From the NCBI GenBank assembly GCA_039920285.1, contig JBDSDX010000001.1, forward strand, positions 420,001-452,000: 32,000 nt of DNA, written 5' to 3'. The DNA comes from Candidatus Saccharimonadota bacterium. Its GTDB lineage: Bacteria; Patescibacteriota; Saccharimonadia; Saccharimonadales; Saccharimonadaceae. The notes under the pieces were generated by a model, which worked only from the letters and a program-made list of their open reading frames with translations, was not told the DNA's origin and did no database searches. The translations under genes and the position numbers were made by a program. Of the stretch, positions 4,634 through 29,876 are shown one piece after another; the stretch's first letter is position 1; each line of letters begins with the position of its first letter.

Positions 4634-5899
4634 ATGTTTGAGACCCTCTCTTTCTTCGCGTCTATCATTGATCTGTTTGCCATTGGTGGCGGTGGAGGCT
4701 CTGGTGGAGGCGGTGGCGGAGGTGGCGGAGGAGGAGGCGGAGGCGGCGGTCACTCTGGTGGTGGATCAGGCGGAAGTAGCAGTCCTCTCAGTATTCTTAT
4801 ATCAGTCCTAATGTATATCGGTATATTCATCGCTGTATTCTATTTTTCTCGTCAAGCCGCAAAAAAGCTGAAAATCCGACGTCAGAAAATGCGTGATGCA
4901 CTCAAGGTTGCCGCCGCGGCAGATGTTATATGGGACCCGGGTGCGCTTGATACCCATGCGAAAGATACATTCATTCAATACCAAAAAGATTGGTCAACGT
5001 TCAACGTTGAATCAATGAAGACGTACATGACACCTCGTTACTATCAACATAATATGTTGATGATGGGGGCACTGAAATTGCATGCGAGGCAAAACGACGT
5101 CCAAAACCCAGTGGTTATATCGGCGGATATTATGCAGTTCCATGACAGCCCCGATGATGCGGCTGATGCGTATACGACCCAAATGGTGGTATTCGTTCAT
5201 GATGTACTCATTGATACCCAAGATAATACGCAATTATTTGCTCAGAATTTAAGTACGACTGAATTCTATAAATTTGAACGTGCAAAAAAGAAATGGTTAT
5301 TTGCGGGCATTGATCAAGCAACGGCAGATCCTAGTAAACGAAATGTTTCACTTGAACAGTTCTCAGACAAGAATGGATTCTTTTTCTCACTCGACTGGGG
5401 TCACTTGTTATTGCCACGGAGAGGACAACTTTTTAGTAAAGGTGCTTTCGGCCGATCTGATATTAACAACCATGTAATCGGACTATATAAAGACATCATT
5501 ATTCAGTTTTATAATTTCGTACCGAATCCTCAAAACACGATGGATCAATATTTGATCGCACAGACAAGTGTTCCGAAGAGTTACGGCAATATTGTGGTTC
5601 GTGTCAAAAAAGGATTCTTCTCGGGAGGCACGAAAGGTTTGCGCCAACTCAAGATGGAGTGGCAAGACTTTAATAACAAATATGAAGTCTTTGCGAGCGA
5701 TGAAGAATTGGCAACCAGTTTTGAACTTTTGAACCCTAAGTTCATGGAAACACTCGAAGCATTACCGTTCGAAGTGAACATTGAAGTTGTCGATAATATC
5801 GTTTATCTCTATAGCGCAGGCTTCGGACTCACAAACGCCGAAGCGTATACGACAATGCTTGATGTTTTAAAGGCTGCATTTAAAGAGATGAGGATGTAG
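4634..5899 (+). CDS. Membrane protein with poly-Gly N-terminus, one TM helix, a Tim44-like region and a DUF3137-like C-terminal domain
   Basis: GGGGGSG(16)HSGGGSGGSSS tract, TM helix ILISVLMYIGIFIAVFYF. A Tim44-like stretch (WDPGALDTHAKDTFIQYQKDW...) and a C-terminal YEVFASDEELATSFELLNPKFMETLEAL resemble DUF3137. Recognised by eye only. Confidence 0.55.
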   Translation: MFETLSFFASIIDLFAIGGGGGSGGGGGGGGGGGGGGGGHSGGGSGGSSSPLSILISVLMYIGIFIAVFYFSRQAAKKLKIRRQKMRDALKVAAAADVIWDPGALDTHAKDTFIQYQKDWSTFNVESMKTYMTPRYYQHNMLMMGALKLHARQNDVQNPVVISADIMQFHDSPDDAADAYTTQMVVFVHDVLIDTQDNTQLFAQNLSTTEFYKFERAKKKWLFAGIDQATADPSKRNVSLEQFSDKNGFFFSLDWGHLLLPRRGQLFSKGAFGRSDINNHVIGLYKDIIIQFYNFVPNPQNTMDQYLIAQTSVPKSYGNIVVRVKKGFFSGGTKGLRQLKMEWQDFNNKYEVFASDEELATSFELLNPKFMETLEALPFEVNIEVVDNIVYLYSAGFGLTNAEAYTTMLDVLKAAFKEMRM

Positions 5900-5937
5900 T
5901 TTTTTCTCTGTGAAAACGCTATAATAGTATAAGAATT

Positions 5938-6793
5938 ATGTATAAAGCGATTGCTGCAAATAAACGAAATACTGTGCTCATTATGGCTGTTTTTGTGGCG
6001 CTCATTAGCGTGATCGGTTATATCATTAGTCTGTATTATGGCAATACGACCATTTCTTATTTCGTAATTGGCGGAGCTGCACTCTACGCACTGATTCAGT
6101 ATTTTATTGCCAGTAAACTTGCGATGGCACTGACTGGTGCGCAAGAAATTCAAAAGAAAGATAATCCACGATTCTACCGCATTGTTGAGAACTTAGCGAT
6201 TACGCTCGGTATGAATACACCAAAGGTATATATCATTGATGATAAAGCACCGAATGCTCTTGCAACGGGACGTGACCCGAAACATGCTATGGTTGCTGCA
6301 ACAACCGGACTTCTTGAGATTATGGATGACCGTGAATTAGAAGCCGTTATGGCGCATGAGATGGGGCACGTTCAGAACTATGACATCCGTGTCACTATGA
6401 TCGCCTTCGGGTTGGTGAGTGCGATTAGCATTTTATCTGACGTTATCATACGAGTGCTGTTCTATGGTGATAATCGTCGTGATGTGAACCCGGTTGTTTT
6501 GGTGGTTGGTTTGATCGTCGTTATTATCGCGCCGATTGTTGCAACAATGGTGCAGTTAGCAATTAGTCGCCAACGCGAATATCTAGCTGATGCGACCGGT
6601 GCGCTAACAACCCGTGATGGTGAAGGCTTGGCGAATGCACTTGAAAAATTGCAAAAATACGGTCAACCAATGAAGCGACAGACTACCTCGACCGCGCACT
6701 TGTTTATTTCGAATCCACTTAAAGCTGGTTTTTTATCGAAACTATTTAGCACCCACCCTCCACTCGAGGACCGTATTAAAAGGTTACGAAATA

Positions 6794-6810: not shown

Positions 6811-9866
<3,056 letters not shown>

Positions 9867-23558: not shown

Positions 23559-23633
23559 TGGGATGTCGCCAAGTGGTAAGGCACCAGTTTTTGGTACTGG
23601 CATTCGGGGGTTCGAATCCCTCCATCCCAGCCA
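23559..23633 (+). tRNA. tRNA-Gln (UUG), CCA encoded
   Basis: Acceptor TGGGATG/CATCCCA, anticodon stem CCAGT/ACTGG, loop TTTTGGT, T arm GGGGG-TTCGAAT-CCCTC. Confidence 0.9.
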
Positions 23634-23797: not shown

Positions 23798-23815
23798 ATC
23801 CCTCCATCCCAGCCA
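23798..23815 (+). repeat. 18-nt perfect direct repeat of the tRNA-Gln 3' end (copy 1 at 23616-23633)
   Basis: ATCCCTCCATCCCAGCCA occurs at both positions. Homology starts inside the T loop, as at tRNA-targeted att sites. Confidence 0.8.
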
Positions 23816-24099: not shown

Positions 24100-24264
24100 C
24101 CCTTCTCACGACGAACCCCTACAGAGTGTTGAGCAATGCTCTTCTCTGTAGGGGTGCTGATTCTTTCATAGCTCGTAATGGCAATGAGCCGCTCAGTCTC
24201 CTTAAAATAATATTGACAAAATTTGAAACGATATTATGCATGTATGTATTATATTTAATATTTA

Positions 24265-24281: not shown

Positions 24282-24662
24282 ATGGAATTCCCTGAAGAGA
24301 AGTTTAAACTAGCAAAGGATCGCTACGCTAAAACGCGGGGTGGTTCTTCAAAGTTTCTTTACATTGCTTGCGCTGAATGTGATGAACCGGCAATGATATA
24401 TCAAAAAGATGGACCAGGCCGCCTCCTTCGTTATTATGCCGACCGCATCGTATGGCCACCTGAATTAGTGAAAGCTCAAATTGAAGTATCTGTTGATTCT
24501 ATAAAAAAATTTGGCGGATTGGCATGTCATAACTGTCAGAATTCTCTCGGTACTCCTATGGTATATGAGTCTGAGAGTCGACCCGCGTACCGAGCAGTAC
24601 CGGGTTCAGTTCATGCCTACCGTAGCCCGGCGCAAGCGCTTGCTCGATCAGAATTAGAATAA
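24282..24662 (+). CDS. Hypothetical zinc-ribbon protein (CxxC...CxxC)
   Basis: 126 aa, with CAEC at residues 30-33 and CHNC at 82-85. No family recognised. Confidence 0.55.
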   Translation: MEFPEEKFKLAKDRYAKTRGGSSKFLYIACAECDEPAMIYQKDGPGRLLRYYADRIVWPPELVKAQIEVSVDSIKKFGGLACHNCQNSLGTPMVYESESRPAYRAVPGSVHAYRSPAQALARSELE

Positions 24663-24666
24663 GTAT

Positions 24667-25305
24667 TTATTTCGTAACGCTGTAGAATGTATTGACGACA
24701 TCTCGAGCAGCTTCAACTGCAGCACCGTCTCTGTTGACAATGCTAATATCAATCGCTGGATGAATAAACTTTTTGATTGCTAACGAAGCGAGTTCGTCGA
24801 GACCTGCTTCAAGACGACCATTAGTATTTCGACCACTTTCGTTCATTCGTTGTGTCCATGCAAGGATAGATTCAGGGTATACGTAAAAGTTTAATGTGTC
24901 ATATTCTGGTCGAGATAATTTATCGATAGTGGCAAGTGGGTAGTCCAGGATTGGCGTATCTCCCTTTGCAAGAGGTTCGAGGATGCCGTGGAGCGGAGTT
25001 CCATACCGAACACCATAAAGATTATTGACGACAACAAATGCGTCGTCAGACTGCATTGCATCAAATTCACCATCTGACACTGAGATCTTATCTGTTTCTT
25101 CAGGTCGATTTGCACGCGTCATAATTGGCTTTACATATTCGAGTTTTGTATCCATAAGTGGCTGCATCTCGTGAATAAGCGTTGATTTGCCCGTTGAAGA
25201 AGGACCTAATAGGAGAATGAATGTTCGTGCTTTTGCAAGTGCACGTTCACGAGTGTCGGAAATCTCTTTCAGACGTTGTTCTGAAGAAAATGAAAATTCA
25301 GTCAT
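24667..25305 (-). CDS. Guanylate kinase / PhnN-like P-loop kinase, divergent
   Basis: Walker A LLGPSSTGKST. MTRANRPEE...SDGEF...NLYGVRYGT parallels the Gmk (SxTTRxxRxGE...YGT) and PhnN (ITRDAS...SEQEF...NGLYYGV) blocks. The ATG overlaps the upstream stop (TAATG). Confidence 0.7.
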   Translation of the reverse strand: MTEFSFSSEQRLKEISDTRERALAKARTFILLLGPSSTGKSTLIHEMQPLMDTKLEYVKPIMTRANRPEETDKISVSDGEFDAMQSDDAFVVVNNLYGVRYGTPLHGILEPLAKGDTPILDYPLATIDKLSRPEYDTLNFYVYPESILAWTQRMNESGRNTNGRLEAGLDELASLAIKKFIHPAIDISIVNRDGAAVEAARDVVNTFYSVTK

Positions 25306-26189
25306 TAGAATTGCTTTGCTCGGTTAATACTATCTCGTAGATTTATGATTGATCGACGTGATGCCATTGCTAGGTCTTCACCTTCGAGTCGTTCGGGGTA
25401 TAGGATGGCTCGTGATGCACTAATCATGAGGCCGTAGCCGTTTGAATCGAGTGTCTGTGGCACGCTATCTTCGAGGCTTCCGCCTTGAGTCCCTACACCA
25501 GCAAGAAGTATCGGTGTTTCACCGATAATATCTCGAACACCATCTAGGTTGTCTTTATGCGTCGCACTTAGGACTGGAATGATGTTTCCATTCTCATTCC
25601 ATTTATCCATACTCTCTTGGAGGATGTAACGCCAAAGGGGATTACCGCCACTAAGCTGAAGATTTTGGATTTCGGCTGATGAAGGATTGGACGTATTGAC
25701 ACAAAGAATAACGACTTTATCCTGCCATCGAGTAAAAGGCTCAATAGCGTCGAAGCCCATGTAGGGATTGAGTAAGACAGCATCTGCATCAAGATTACCA
25801 AAAATTTCATCGGCAATTTTATCTGCTGTATGACCGACATCACCAAATTTACCGTCACAAACACGGAGGACATCGGGATGTTCAGCTTTTAAGTGAGCAA
25901 AAGTGTTCGCAAGTGCTTTTCGCCCTGCTTCGCCTTGAAAAAAGTTAGAATTCACTTTGAAGTCGACTGCATAGTCTGCTGTAGCATCGATTATTTTTTG
26001 ATTAAAGAGAGTTATGCCGTCAGCCATATTTTCTCGTCCACCAACTTCTTCCCAGATTTCGTCTGGAATTTTGTTAGTGTCGGGATCAATACCAACTCCA
26101 GCCATTGAATCGATAGAGATCCAACGACGGTGGATTTTATTGATTCCAGGAGCGGCGTCTGGGTATGGATTTTCTGCTGAGATAGTCAT
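25305..26189 (-). CDS. Orotidine-5'-phosphate decarboxylase family protein, type 2-like
   Basis: Collinear by eye with actinobacterial PyrF. Matching blocks are VGIDPD, FKVNSNFF (Lys), CDGKFGDVGHT (DxKxxD), DAVLLNPYMGFDAIEPF, NTSNPS and AGVGTQGG. Start moved to ATG 26189 (GGAG 6 nt upstream, 1 nt after the upstream stop) instead of 26261. Confidence 0.75.
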   Translation of the reverse strand: MTISAENPYPDAAPGINKIHRRWISIDSMAGVGIDPDTNKIPDEIWEEVGGRENMADGITLFNQKIIDATADYAVDFKVNSNFFQGEAGRKALANTFAHLKAEHPDVLRVCDGKFGDVGHTADKIADEIFGNLDADAVLLNPYMGFDAIEPFTRWQDKVVILCVNTSNPSSAEIQNLQLSGGNPLWRYILQESMDKWNENGNIIPVLSATHKDNLDGVRDIIGETPILLAGVGTQGGSLEDSVPQTLDSNGYGLMISASRAILYPERLEGEDLAMASRRSIINLRDSINRAKQF

Positions 26190-26190
26190 A

Positions 26191-27402
26191 TTATTCTCCG
26201 TCCTCTCCATAATATATACCTCTATGGAGATGTTTTGCAGCAAGGTGGTGCTGAGATCCATTAGTACCCGTAGAATGTGTCGGTCGGCGGGTTACTTGAA
26301 TACCACCAGCTATTAAGCCTTCGGCTTTTTGGCGATTATCAGTCTGAAGCATAATTGATTTAATACCAATCATACTCAAGATGCGACCAGCACCCTCGTA
26401 GGTTCGAATGTCAAAGTCAGGCCCAAGTATTTGCTTCGCAGCAGTGATCGTATCAAGAGGAACGAGATTATCAGAGTTAGTCGCGACATTAATGCCCCGT
26501 TTCAAACCTTCGGTTTCCATTTTTGTTGCAGCACCGAAGCCGCGTCCGTCTTGAGATGGTATGTGAATTACTGCGCCATTGCCAATCTCTTGAATGTCGT
26601 TCAATGCATGGTGGAGCTGTTCACGACAATCGCATCCACGATCATCATATATTTGCCCAATATCACAACCCGAGTCGATACGCACCAATAAATCTTTCGT
26701 TGGCATTTCTTCAAGAGGTCGTGGTGTGAATAATTCGTAGTACTTCCATGGGTCATTCTCGAGGACTAATCCATATGAATGAAGATCTCCACCTTCGAAT
26801 GGATATTTGCGGGCGTGAATCGTCTCGAGAACACTTGTTTCGGGTAGGTTATCGTCTTGTTCAGACGGTTTACTTAATGAAAGACGAATTTCAGGTTCGT
26901 GGAGACCAGTTATCTTGATGAGTTTTTCGAGGTGCTTCTGGCGTTTTTTCTCACTATCGGTTGGAGTGAGGCTGCGTGGGTAATAAGCCATACCAGTGTT
27001 GCAGTGACGAATCAAAACGTGTTTTCGATCAGTATCAAACTGGTTCATTAGTTGTGCATAGCCAGGATGTGAAGCAGCAGTCAGTTTGTAGCTGGCTTCA
27101 TCAATTTCGAGTAACGAAACAGGAAAGTTAGCGGCTATTAACGCTTCTTCAGGAGTGGTGTTTACGTAGAGAAGTTGAAAGTAAGAGAAAGTTTCGCCAT
27201 CATCAACTTCAACAGGACTCATCCATACGTTTCGATCACCTTGTAAATCGAGAGGACCACCATAGAAATGAGTAACCGATTTATCTTGGAATAGTATCAA
27301 CCGACTTAAAGATTCACGATATTCATCGCTTATAGGTGGAAAGCCGTTTGGCGTGTGTTGATCGAATTCAACGATACCAGGCAGTTTTACCTCTATATTC
27401 AT
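26191..27402 (-). CDS. GTP cyclohydrolase II-fold domain (C-terminal ~210 aa) fused to an unrecognised ~190-aa N-terminal domain
   Basis: VRIDSGCDIGQIYDDRGCDCREQL...IHIPSQDGRGFG parallels RibA RVHSECLTGD...LRCDCGxQL...EGRGIG, with all three Zn cysteines kept. The N-terminal half has no RibB motifs. Confidence 0.75.
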   Translation of the reverse strand: MNIEVKLPGIVEFDQHTPNGFPPISDEYRESLSRLILFQDKSVTHFYGGPLDLQGDRNVWMSPVEVDDGETFSYFQLLYVNTTPEEALIAANFPVSLLEIDEASYKLTAASHPGYAQLMNQFDTDRKHVLIRHCNTGMAYYPRSLTPTDSEKKRQKHLEKLIKITGLHEPEIRLSLSKPSEQDDNLPETSVLETIHARKYPFEGGDLHSYGLVLENDPWKYYELFTPRPLEEMPTKDLLVRIDSGCDIGQIYDDRGCDCREQLHHALNDIQEIGNGAVIHIPSQDGRGFGAATKMETEGLKRGINVATNSDNLVPLDTITAAKQILGPDFDIRTYEGAGRILSMIGIKSIMLQTDNRQKAEGLIAGGIQVTRRPTHSTGTNGSQHHLAAKHLHRGIYYGEDGE

Positions 27403-27408
27403 GTACAG

Positions 27409-27437
27409 ATTATAGCATATTTTTGCTTGATATGCAA
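27409..27437 (-). promoter_or_regulatory. TTGCAT-17 nt-TATAAT promoter ending 6 nt before ATG 27402 (leaderless)
   Basis: The minus strand reads TTGCATatcaagcaaaaatatgcTATAATctgtacATG, counted directly. Confidence 0.55.
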
Positions 27438-27444
27438 TAACTTA

Positions 27445-28074
27445 TTATTGAATATCTTGTCTTAGACTTTCGATAGCAAGTTGATCCTTGACATGCAAGT
27501 GGCAAGAGTCGAGGAAGTGATAGTAATGTCCTACTGGAAGGCCAACACGTTCAGCGATGTAGTGCTGTAATGAAATGAATTCTAACATGTTCATTAATAG
27601 TTTTTTGTAAGCGTCTGAAGAATTGGTATGAATATGTAGTTCAAGTGTACCGTGTTTGATTCTTGCCCAGATAATCTGTGTGCACGGTGAGACTTTTTGT
27701 CCTTGATCGATAGACTTGTCCCACATAGAAATCTGAGCTTCACCGACAGGATTATTTTGGTCGAGACTTTTAATGAGAAATTCGATCTGCGAGTTCGGTT
27801 CGTCAAATGAACGGTGATAGTAAAGTTTAGTCCAATCATGGACGACATTTTCTTCATTTTCGCCAGTATAGATATATCGATTAATAACATCGAGATCACT
27901 TTGGGACATTGGGAAACGTACATCTGCGGGTAGGACCAGGGGCTCAGCAATCTCAATGAGTGTTACTTCGTCGCGTAAGTATTTATCGTTACCTGTTTCT
28001 GAGCCTTGATCAAGTAAAGCAGTGAACGTTTCGAGCCAAGCTTCATTGGCGCTTATGGTAGAGATATGGATCAT
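27445..28074 (-). CDS. Short thymidylate synthase (ThyA)-fold protein, divergent
   Basis: 209 aa. ISMWDKS...KVSPCTQIIWARIKHGTLELHIHTNSSDAYKKLLMNMLEF...GHYYHFLDSCHLH is collinear with ThyA SAWNV...[34 protein letters not shown]...GDTHLY. The catalytic Cys is kept. Confidence 0.65.
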   Translation of the reverse strand: MIHISTISANEAWLETFTALLDQGSETGNDKYLRDEVTLIEIAEPLVLPADVRFPMSQSDLDVINRYIYTGENEENVVHDWTKLYYHRSFDEPNSQIEFLIKSLDQNNPVGEAQISMWDKSIDQGQKVSPCTQIIWARIKHGTLELHIHTNSSDAYKKLLMNMLEFISLQHYIAERVGLPVGHYYHFLDSCHLHVKDQLAIESLRQDIQ

Positions 28075-28091
28075 ACCTCTATTTTATCATG

Positions 28092-29249
28092 TTAAAAATT
28101 ATGCGGTATCGCGCAGGGATTAATACCTTTTCGTTGCAAGATTCGTAAAACTGATTGTGAAAACTCTTTTGAGTCTAATTCGCCAGATTGTAATGCAGTC
28201 GTTGCACGGGTAATGATCGTCTGAAAATCACTCGCAAGCTCAGGGGTTTGATCGTGTGTTTGAACGATCAGTGCAACATCGATGCCAGCTTGCCATGACT
28301 TTATAACGGCATCTTCAAGTGTTCCTGGGACTGCTTGTGCGGTGAGTGAATCACTATAGATAACTGAACCTTGATACCCATAACTTCGAAGGAGTGACAC
28401 AGCAGTCGGAGACCAAATGGCGGGCTGCCCATCTGTTAAACCTGGGGTGATAGCATTGCTTACCATGACGTCAGGTTTGTAGGTGGCAAGTTGCTGGTAG
28501 GGAAGTAAGTCTCGTGTCAAAAGCACGGAGAAAGAATCGGTGGTTGCGGTCATAAAATCAGTATTCCCAGTCGCACTTCCGAGACCGGGAAAATGCTTTA
28601 CGACTGGTGAGATACCTGAAGTCTGCGCAGCTTTAATTGCTTGCGATGCATAATTCGCCACGACTGACGGGTCGGATGAATACATTCGCCCTGGCAATGG
28701 ATTTGGTTCGACGCTTGCGACATCAACAACAGGAGCGAAATTGGTAGTGATACCAATACTTTTCAAATACTGCGCGTCACTAAGGTATAGATTGTACGCC
28801 CGTGCTAGTGTGCTGTAACTCGCTATATCACTGGCGCCAAGAAAACTTCCTTCAGCTGTGTACCGTTGGACGGTTCCACCCTCTTGGTCCGTCGCGACCG
28901 TCGGCGCAAACAGAAAACCGTTTTTAAAATCTTGTAATGACGCCGTCGATATTTCGTTCATAATAATGACACCGCCGATGTTTGACTGAATAAACACTGC
29001 TTTCTCTTCGGATAGTCGGTCCTCGTACCCTGCGGCCATTATCTTTTGACCAATTTTTATACTGTTAGGAAAAGCATCGACACAGGCAAGTTGATCTTCG
29101 GCTGGCTTTTCTGGGATAGTTGGTGATTGACTTGACTGGGTATCTTTGTTTAAAAAAAGAGTAATGCGTCCGCTCATGAGCAACCACGCGATAACTATTG
29201 CTAAGGAAAGGATGACTGCGCCAATAATAATGAGACGTTGTCTGTGCAT
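28092..29249 (-). CDS. Glycoside hydrolase family 3 N-terminal-domain protein (NagZ-like beta-N-acetylhexosaminidase), membrane-anchored
   Basis: N-terminal TM helix; DQEGGTVQR, NFAPVVDV, KHFPGLG and MVSNAITPGLTDGQPA are GH3 blocks. A -10-like TATACT lies 7 nt before the ATG. Confidence 0.8.
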   Translation of the reverse strand: MHRQRLIIIGAVILSLAIVIAWLLMSGRITLFLNKDTQSSQSPTIPEKPAEDQLACVDAFPNSIKIGQKIMAAGYEDRLSEEKAVFIQSNIGGVIIMNEISTASLQDFKNGFLFAPTVATDQEGGTVQRYTAEGSFLGASDIASYSTLARAYNLYLSDAQYLKSIGITTNFAPVVDVASVEPNPLPGRMYSSDPSVVANYASQAIKAAQTSGISPVVKHFPGLGSATGNTDFMTATTDSFSVLLTRDLLPYQQLATYKPDVMVSNAITPGLTDGQPAIWSPTAVSLLRSYGYQGSVIYSDSLTAQAVPGTLEDAVIKSWQAGIDVALIVQTHDQTPELASDFQTIITRATTALQSGELDSKEFSQSVLRILQRKGINPCAIPHNF

Positions 29250-29384: not shown

Positions 29385-29876
29385 ATGACAAATACAATAA
29401 AAACTGTTTCTTCACCCGAGAGTATCGAAATGATTATGTCATTTCTCGAACACCATACTGAAGGAGTGCTCACCACCATTGACGAAAAGGGTCTCCCGCA
29501 CGCATCGGTCATCAACGTCCATGTAAAAAGTGATTATGATTGCTACTTTATTGTTAAAACAAATGGTTTTAAATATCATAATTTAAGGATAAATGATTGT
29601 GTCGTTTTTGTATGTTTTGACCCGTATAGTCGCGATGAGGTTCAAATAGAAGGTCGTGCACACGAGGTTACTGACCGACAGATTATTGATGAAGAAAAAA
29701 AGAGAGTCGAAGCTAATATCACTGCGGATAATAAGCACACACCACCTTATGCTAGTATCCTTACTGATGATTTTGCTGTCTTCAATATTAAACCAACGTT
29801 AATGCACACGGTTACGTATATACGAAAAGACAATAAAGTAACGTCATTTCATGAAAAAATTGAATTTGAAGACTAA
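29385..29876 (+). CDS. Pyridoxamine 5'-phosphate oxidase-like FMN-binding split-barrel protein
   Basis: The pattern GVLTTIDEKGLPHASVINVHV...YFIVKTNGFKYHNLRINDCVVFVCFD...VQIEGRAHEV is typical of the PNPOx-like family. AAAGGA SD. Confidence 0.65.
   Translation: MTNTIKTVSSPESIEMIMSFLEHHTEGVLTTIDEKGLPHASVINVHVKSDYDCYFIVKTNGFKYHNLRINDCVVFVCFDPYSRDEVQIEGRAHEVTDRQIIDEEKKRVEANITADNKHTPPYASILTDDFAVFNIKPTLMHTVTYIRKDNKVTSFHEKIEFED

Follow-up and report, generated by a model that had tools for sequence, protein, structure and literature searches.

The window analysed here, a stretch of 32,000 nt on a 795-kb contig (JBDSDX010000001.1, positions 420,001 to 452,000; locus tags ABIP50_023xx) of a Candidatus Saccharimonadales metagenome-assembled genome (MAG), encodes a cassette consisting of a cyclohydrolase II-type protein (GCH2f), a paralogue of type-2 orotidine 5'-monophosphate (OMP) decarboxylase, a P-loop kinase and a small zinc protein (ZnR). 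These four parts, and not the run of five minus-strand genes outlined in a preliminary description of the same DNA, almost certainly form the conserved unit. The cassette can firmly be said to handle phosphorylated nucleotides and to be distinct from riboflavin synthesis, the URC pathway, de novo pyrimidine synthesis and known defence systems, in line with the earlier claim that the cluster fits no recognised pathway; the Saccharibacteria-type origin considered there is also borne out. It appears to be undescribed: no account of it was found in the full-text literature on URC1/UTP cyclohydrolase or on orotidine, pyrF and GTP cyclohydrolase in these lineages, and, while its catalytic domains belong to known superfamilies, the ZnR family attached to them is new.

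The window carries all five minus-strand open reading frames (ORFs) reported before, with the same coordinates and folds (Pfam and NCBIfam), and three of them belong to the cassette. GCH2f (26191..27402, minus strand, 403 aa) joins a novel N-terminal domain (aa 1 to ~190) to a Zn domain of the GTP-cyclohydrolase-II (GCH-II) type. It is followed on the same strand by the decarboxylase paralogue (25305..26210, TIGR02127) and the kinase (24667..25305, PF00625), which has the Gmk/PhnN-type nucleoside monophosphate (NMP) kinase fold. The fourth part, ZnR (24282..24662, plus strand), a four-cysteine (CxxC...CxxC) zinc protein of 126 aa, is convergent with the operon and was overlooked in the preliminary description. 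The kinase ATG has one base in common with the decarboxylase stop codon (the TAATG overlap noted earlier). The 1-nt gap claimed ahead of the decarboxylase is obtained with the alternative ATG at 26189, whereas the public gene call starts at the ATG at 26210, in agreement with the 'MER' N-terminus conserved among relatives, and overlaps GCH2f by 20 nt. The three enzymes are probably translationally coupled.

Species-representative genomes (one per species) were scanned with a cyclohydrolase profile, which gave 24 loci with a full-length relative, and the proteins of the window were run by tblastn against the cyclohydrolase-positive loci for synteny. The gene order of cyclohydrolase, decarboxylase and kinase is shared, orientation included, by 22 of the 25 informative genome loci, from at least five lineages. 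This order was found in Saccharimonadales and other Patescibacteria (L002-L015, L017), as well as in Dependentiae (L018, L021, L026), Chlamydiae (L025) and MAGs labelled Gammaproteobacteria or Pseudomonadota (L019, L020, L024); one cyclohydrolase-profile locus comes from an unclassified bacterium (L022). In nearly all related loci ZnR adjoins the three enzymes, and outside Patescibacteria it is present in two copies, one on each side of them. For a reciprocal test, metagenomes were scanned with ZnR as the sole seed; of the 46 loci with a length of 5 kb or more, 19 show the order ZnR-GCH-OMPdc-Gmk, and many of these cassettes encode a shorter cyclohydrolase without the N-terminal domain. The adjacency is far above chance expectation, and the cassette is distributed horizontally among host-dependent lineages. 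Adjacency in relatives, on which the preliminary description had made its reading depend, thus proved to be strongly conserved, in Patescibacteria genomes and beyond. The three-enzyme core of the five-gene cluster proposed there was upheld; its GH3 gene fell away, and its short ThyA-fold gene turned out not to be obligatory.

The riboflavin genes ribB, ribD, ribH and ribE are not conserved neighbours in 30 loci, nor are URC4/DUF1688, UPRT or urea amidolyase among the conserved neighbours of the cassette; no phn genes were found near it, and its vicinity has no conserved genes for tailoring enzymes, transporters or resistance. In Peribacteria (L030, L066) a 12-kb nucleotide-metabolism block was observed, which begins with PyrD, PyrG, an unknown 327-aa protein, a short GCH-II, a HAD-like protein, an OMP decarboxylase and ZnR, and ends with two AAA_28 kinases, IMPDH/GuaC and adenosine deaminase; a recognisable pyrE was not seen within this locus.

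Adjacent parts of the cassette are fused in every combination. The decarboxylase and kinase form a single 488-aa ORF in the Chlamydiae MAG (L025), ZnR is fused to GCH-II in P0231/P0444 and to the guanylate kinase-like domain (Guanylate_kin) in P0196, P0258, P0295 and P0308, and P0286 combines ZnR with a THEP1-type NTPase (NTPase_1). In one assembly (L171/L172, GCA_027335715.1, 4362-7041) the whole cassette is reduced to two genes, of which the first encodes GCH-II+OMPdecase (544 aa) and the second Gmk-ZnR; its contig neighbours look archaeal (family-B DNA polymerase, V4R, DUF929). A variant layout (L173/L174, 1200-4938) has the ZnR-GCH fusion followed by separate OMPdc and Gmk genes and adjoins a restriction-like DUF2357/PDDEXK_7 gene pair. 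One 651-aa protein (P0111; L175, 3533-5488) combines a SidE phosphodiesterase domain (SidE_PDE) with a cyclohydrolase-II domain and may be used like an effector by a Legionella-like organism.

ZnR has a rigid set of invariant polar residues together with two CxxC pairs and a YQKDGPG motif, and its family comprises 606 representatives at 50% clustering. No significant sequence match was found in Pfam or the PDB; the profile RIG-I_C-RD of Pfam gave E = 0.01, under the family cut-off, and a search of BFVD returned no meaningful match. The AlphaFold2 (AF2) model of ZnR (pLDDT 92.6) had as its top Foldseek matches in the PDB exclusively beta-tent proteins (the C-terminal domain, CTD, of LGP2, YPEL5, MsrB and a bacterial cereblon), at E of at least 0.25 and TM of 0.3-0.4. 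Where ZnR genes occur outside the cassette, no single conserved partner was found for them; the neighbours that recur are NUDIX and CYTH enzymes, which, like the NTPase_1 fusion partner, act on nucleotide polyphosphates. A lone ZnR homologue (6001-6303) was also found on a 65-kb contig filed as viral (L082, IMGVR_UViG_3300030113_000006), near a sigma-70 gene; its remaining neighbours have no Pfam match.

In GCH2f, PF00925 spans only aa 237-373, and the protein scores below the cut-offs for RibA (TIGR00505, 65.6 bits against 205.85; NF001591, 73.2 bits against 148). Cys246, Cys257, Cys259 and Arg333, which correspond to Cys54, Cys65, Cys67 and Arg128 of RibA, are invariant across 20 homologues, and the position of RibA Tyr105 is occupied by a nearly invariant glutamate (Glu298). 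In RibA, the arginine forms a covalent nucleotidyl intermediate. The family profile gives 65-76 bits on RibA/RibBA chains, compared with 18 bits (E = 0.012, C-terminal domain only) on UTP cyclohydrolase (PDB 7eev/7ej3). Foldseek with the AF2 model (pLDDT 89.6) likewise aligned only the C-terminal domain, about equally well to RibA (E = 3e-8) and to 7eev (E = 2e-7). No relative of the N-terminal domain was found in Pfam or the PDB, and its profile did not match 7eev/7ej3. The profile and structure comparisons proposed earlier bore out the predicted folds; by sequence GCH2f is not of the URC1 type, RibA being nearer. With RibA and UTP cyclohydrolase as two functional branches of the cyclohydrolase-II fold, this family may represent a third. 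Two further candidates were set aside: locus L035, taken as a UrcA reference, proved to be an ordinary RibBA, and phage AAT-1 has both thymidylate synthase and GCH-II in its genome, but the two genes are unlinked.

The decarboxylase passes the TIGR02127 cut-off (164.7 bits against 110.6). Its motifs FKVN, DGKFGD, NTSN, GTQGG and SASR align with those of the Leishmania enzyme and with canonical motifs, and it retains the Lys/DxKxxD tetrad as well as the Ser/Thr, Gln and Arg contacts for the orotate ring and the phosphate; among PDB entries, it matches the OMP decarboxylase domain of Leishmania UMP synthase best. The cassette copies (150-165 bits) form a group of their own that unites all phyla, as judged from a neighbour-joining (NJ) tree and reciprocal hidden Markov model (HMM) scoring, and carry the signatures LLAGxG, ILYP and LW. 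In L013, the complete genome CP064992.1, a canonical pyrF (229 bits) next to a phosphoribosyltransferase (PRTase) gene exists alongside the cassette copy (156 bits), and this canonical PyrF falls outside the cassette group. Judged from these features, the cassette enzyme is a paralogue of type-2 OMP decarboxylase and probably not the housekeeping copy linked to pyrE. In the L013 cassette the ThyA-like and kinase genes (5310-5927, 8175-8776) are each split by frameshifts and are either pseudogenes or assembly errors; an insertion-sequence (IS) integrase, an EamA transporter, PurB and PurC are encoded in the vicinity.

The kinase matches PF00625 with E = 8.8e-10 and is far below the thresholds for both guanylate kinase (TIGR03263, 59.2 bits, cut-off 160.45) and PhnN (TIGR02322, 54.2 bits, cut-off 156). 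The P-loop and the phosphate-binding arginines are present. HMMER alignment to 4f4j and 1s96 places Val at the guanine-binding Glu (E69 of yeast, E72 of Escherichia coli) and Ile at Y50, and the cassette kinase is accordingly predicted not to be a guanylate kinase. An identity as the PhnN ribose-1,5-bisphosphate kinase was rejected, as the score lies under the cut-off and the phn context is missing. With GCH2f, the kinase and the ThyA-like protein below their equivalog cut-offs, three of the four nucleotide enzymes of the minus-strand run are diverged, as had been supposed.

The cyclohydrolase homologues fall into two clades. Patescibacteria-type proteins (P0001-P0070) have no hydrophobic N-terminus, while nearly every member of the other clade (P0072-P0110), which represents Dependentiae, Chlamydiae and the gammaproteobacterial MAGs, begins with a signal-peptide-like sequence. 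The decarboxylase, kinase and first ZnR copy of the same loci also begin with such a sequence, unlike the second ZnR copy and the ThyA-like protein of L020. An exported kinase would be sensible only where host ATP can be reached, which would fit an intracellular lifestyle.

A promoter (27409..27437, minus strand; TTGCAT-17 nt-TGcTATAAT) was located in the 42-nt gap upstream of GCH2f (27403-27444). The preliminary description called it near-consensus, which is true of the extended -10 element (TGcTATAAT, perfect) and not of the -35 element, which matches at just 3 of 6 positions, so that a consensus scan missed this promoter. The -10 box ends 6 nt ahead of the GCH2f ATG, and the three-enzyme mRNA is probably leaderless. 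The same layout of -35, -10, 6 nt and ATG is kept in 12 related loci (range L002-L014); given this conserved geometry, the three enzymes form their own transcription unit, separate from GH3 and the ThyA-like gene. A promoter-like site also precedes ZnR (TTGAAA-18-TATTAT, 24223..24252, plus strand) and is the best site of the region in the consensus scan, with a 10/12 match to consensus as its only support. Scanning with Rfam returned three tRNAs and no riboswitch.

Beyond ZnR lies a tRNA-Gln gene (23559-23633), whose 3' end recurs as an exact 18-nt repeat at 23798-23815. The att-like scar described there before is thus real as a repeat, and it does not bracket the gene block: the two copies are 182 nt apart and enclose ~165 nt, and no third copy was found beyond the block. 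A genomic island bounded by this repeat was rejected, there being no distal copy and no deviant GC content. In relatives, a tRNA gene just past the ZnR end was observed in L002, L003 and L008 (tRNA-Asn) and in L017 (tRNA-Pro), which hints at cassette insertion beside tRNA genes. No homologues of the cyclohydrolase were found on viral contigs.

Upstream of the cassette, separated from GCH2f by the 42-nt gap already reported, lies a gene for a short ThyA-type thymidylate synthase of 209 aa (27445..28074, minus strand; PF00303, E = 8e-9, 35.5 bits against a cut-off of 24.3). Its best full-length match is the methanogen-type thymidylate synthase TIGR03283 (60.6 bits, cut-off 174.55). The catalytic Cys146 (SPC) and the base-specifying Asn177 (LLMN) are kept; alignment to Bacillus subtilis ThyA shows E, A and N in place of the dUMP-phosphate residues R126, R127 and R166, a family-wide pattern. 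Within Saccharibacteria the family is abundant and varies little (239 matches, of which the best 120 are at least 68% identical). In the window and in L002-L013 the gene is upstream of and co-oriented with the cassette. Beside cassette variants it is divergent in L087 and, in six metagenome loci, follows the kinase in convergent orientation; in one gammaproteobacterial MAG it comes after the cassette (51% identity). Of four long contigs examined, three, among them the complete genome CP025011.1, have it apart from the cassette, and it occurs without a cassette in L083-L086 and L089; in L083, NUDIX and MazG-like genes occur near it. Synthesis of dTMP is within the minimal Patescibacteria repertoire (PMC12455944). 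We read the ThyA-like protein as the ordinary short thymidylate synthase of Saccharibacteria, with a loose, thematic and non-obligatory link to the cassette. The 'C5 one-carbon transfer' proposed earlier is not an obligatory step, because the protein also occurs away from the cassette.

The remaining neighbours are variable. GH3 (28092-29249, minus strand; PF00933, E = 3e-41), which has a hydrophobic N-terminus and lies 17 nt from the ThyA-like gene as described earlier, never accompanies the three enzymes in related loci (tblastn) and is an unrelated neighbour outside the cassette. A PNPOx/F420-type flavin-binding protein (29385-29876, divergent from GH3; PF01243, E = 1.5e-11) is likewise not kept with the cassette in related loci (tblastn). 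A THEP1-type NTPase (PF03266) adjoins the cassette in six Saccharimonadales loci and, in several loci of this order, is divergent from and upstream of the ThyA-like gene; such NTPases were noted in L002, L005, L008-L011, L023 and L093. NTPase_1 is absent from the window, where GH3 occupies this position. The cyclohydrolase of L023 is followed by two of these NTPases together with an adenylate kinase.

Our favoured reading, held tentatively, is that the cassette constitutes a pyrimidine-centred route by which host nucleotides are scavenged or remodelled, a chemistry that we infer from the protein families. The decarboxylase would convert an orotidine-type 5'-nucleotide to UMP or a very close analogue, and the kinase would raise a 5'-monophosphate to the diphosphate, from which the triphosphate might be made with the help of Ndk or ZnR. 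The cyclohydrolase would accept a nucleoside triphosphate (NTP), expel pyrophosphate via the conserved arginine and then open the base with zinc-activated water, like RibA acting on GTP or URC1/UrcA acting on UTP. ZnR might be a nucleotide-binding subunit or a gate common to the phosphate-handling enzymes. The reactions would take place in the cytoplasm in Patescibacteria and outside it in Dependentiae, Chlamydiae and the gammaproteobacterial MAGs. Several points weigh against this scheme. The substrates of all steps are putative, and neither the cassette nor the window encodes a PRTase as a source of the orotidine-type compound. As the cyclohydrolase is closer in sequence to the GTP-specific RibA, a uracil substrate is a guess, and opening the ring of a nucleotide that the cassette has just made looks wasteful. 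As the fusions track gene order, they demonstrate that the parts are coupled physically or functionally and do not show which reaction comes first. In addition, the beta-tent assignment of ZnR comes from non-significant matches (E of at least 0.25), and an ATP-dependent kinase would have little apparent use outside the cytoplasm unless it could draw on host ATP.

The same enzymes might instead make a specialised nucleotide, i.e. a cofactor, a signal or an effector against host or phage, which we regard as doubtful. The cyclohydrolase would then act first, on GTP or another NTP, the decarboxylase and kinase would tailor and re-phosphorylate the ring-opened ribotide, and ZnR would serve as a carrier or specificity subunit. 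Such a sequence of steps would follow the order GCH, OMPdc, kinase seen in operon and fusions and would suit a cyclohydrolase nearest to RibA, a decarboxylase that exists beside a canonical pyrF, the export signals on all enzymes of one clade and the SidE_PDE fusion. It is harder to reconcile with a decarboxylase that retains the residues reading the uracil or orotate ring and with a neighbourhood in which tailoring, transporter and resistance genes are not conserved; moreover, we know of no cyclohydrolase-II product with a carboxylate that an OMP-type site could remove. Nucleotide-pool sanitation, in which damaged or non-canonical NTPs would be turned into usable monophosphates with ZnR as a sensor or adaptor common to house-cleaning hydrolases, seems unlikely. 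E. coli RibA does hydrolyse 8-oxo-GTP, and the association of lone ZnR with NUDIX/CYTH genes, its fusion to NTPase_1, the THEP1-type NTPase next to six Saccharimonadales cassettes and the NUDIX and MazG-like genes of L083 all point in this direction; an OMP decarboxylase has no obvious role in it, however, and strict co-inheritance of four parts argues for a pathway rather than for independent cleaners. The favoured scavenging route also has to be set against a supply of pyrimidines that is independent of phosphoribosyl pyrophosphate (PRPP). Here the cyclohydrolase would destroy the base of a plentiful host NTP and free an activated phosphoribosyl unit, which ZnR and/or the PhnN-like kinase would hand to orotate, and the decarboxylase would complete UMP. 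A kinase score to PhnN nearly equal to that to Gmk, a complete OMP site, the Peribacteria loci, where OMPdc and ZnR sit with PyrD and no recognisable pyrE, and the spread among host-dependent lineages are consistent with this proposal. We nevertheless consider it decidedly unlikely, as its chemistry is without precedent, L013 has the cassette together with a PRTase beside canonical pyrF, and enzyme export in intracellular lineages is at odds with cytoplasmic biosynthesis.

Two further explanations were weighed. A module for anti-phage defence or toxin immunity, which would deplete or poison nucleotide pools and in which ZnR would confer immunity or act as regulator, is very improbable: the paired ZnR copies of many loci, just one of which has an export signal, the variable flanks, the tRNA genes beside several cassettes and the one locus that adjoins the DUF2357/PDDEXK_7 pair would suit it, whereas PADLOC defence models had no match to the five proteins, PADLOC and PHROG had none to any part, the cassette was not found on viral contigs, and its ordered retention in very small host-dependent genomes is more typical of metabolism. 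Chance adjacency of ordinary housekeeping ThyA, RibA, PyrF and Gmk is scarcely credible. The decarboxylase does pass the NCBIfam pyrF_sub2 cut-off, and the ThyA-like protein is widespread and annotated as thymidylate synthase. For the three-enzyme core this explanation is contradicted by the low equivalog scores of the cyclohydrolase and kinase, the loss of the guanine-binding Glu, the replacement of Tyr105, the lack of rib genes nearby, the cross-phylum gene order with fusions and the extra canonical pyrF of L013.

Patescibacteria, Dependentiae, Chlamydiae and similar organisms lack most of nucleotide biosynthesis, and their acquisition of nucleotides bears on host dependence. It is possible, although open to serious doubt, that the cassette represents an unrecognised pathway of host-dependent prokaryotes, namely Patescibacteria, Dependentiae, Chlamydiae, reduced proteobacteria and, probably, DPANN-like archaea. 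If so, it would comprise a new branch of cyclohydrolase II, a neofunctionalised OMP decarboxylase, an NMP kinase that is not a guanylate kinase and a new zinc family, and would convert host nucleotides into something that the symbiont needs or uses against its host, for example through a PRPP-independent pyrimidine route or as a secreted nucleotide-derived effector. In lineages that live inside host cells, all steps might then run outside the bacterial cytoplasm and draw on host ATP and other NTPs. The compact, conserved cassette is a testable candidate for a missing piece of host-dependent nucleotide metabolism, and ZnR adds a new family of zinc proteins, with ~600 sequence clusters, tied by fusion to nucleotide-polyphosphate enzymes. 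Automatic labels such as 'pyrF', 'ribA' and 'gmk' in reduced genomes should be treated with caution, as they can imply non-existent pathways.

Several known proteins resemble parts of the cassette. RibA is the best match, in sequence and structure, for the C-terminal domain of GCH2f and has in common with it the Zn-binding Cys triad, the QxGRG motif and the pyrophosphate-releasing Arg; GCH2f differs in its scores below all RibA equivalog cut-offs, Glu in place of Tyr105 and an extra N-terminal domain of 190 aa, in that ribB, D, H and E are never adjacent to it and in the predicted export of one of its clades. URC1/UrcA is described as the UTP cyclohydrolase of the URC pathway (PDB 7eev, 7ej3; Zhang et al., ACS Catal 2021, cited in PMC12507026). 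It resembles GCH2f in its two-domain architecture (~400-425 aa, with the C-terminal cyclohydrolase-II Zn domain starting at residue 240-250), in the retained Cys triad and Arg, and in a loop after the Tyr105 helix that is longer in 7eev/7ej3 and GCH2f than in RibA. In both URC and the route proposed for the cassette, a pyrimidine NMP would be raised to the triphosphate before ring opening. The two systems differ in their N-terminal domains, which have no detectable similarity, in the Glu that replaces Tyr in GCH2f, and in their partners: URC4, UPRT, urea amidolyase and malonic-semialdehyde reductase are not found near the cassette, whose fixed partners are the OMP decarboxylase, the kinase and ZnR.

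Similarly, the cassette decarboxylase is like type-2 PyrF and the UMP synthase domain in passing TIGR02127 and in having all catalytic and OMP-binding motifs. Unlike type-2 PyrF, it belongs to a separate clade with its own signature residues, coexists with the canonical pair in L013 and bears a signal-peptide-like N-terminus in one cassette clade; and while UMP synthase is a fusion with orotate phosphoribosyltransferase (OPRT), the cassette enzyme is coupled or fused to the cyclohydrolase and kinase and never to OPRT. ZnR recalls, at a level of fold similarity below significance, the beta-tent proteins (Mss4-like: CULT, RIG-I/LGP2 CTD, MsrB, Yippee), several of which bind nucleosides or 5'-triphosphates, in its two CxxC pairs ~50 residues apart and its all-beta core; it lacks the aromatic cage of CULT, and its YQKDGPG and PMVY-x-x-E-x-R motifs are not known in beta-tent families. 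Purely as an analogy, with no kinship claimed, ZnR may be compared to PyrI, the regulatory chain of aspartate transcarbamoylase, which is also a small four-Cys zinc protein, binds nucleotides and serves an enzyme of the pyrimidine pathway.

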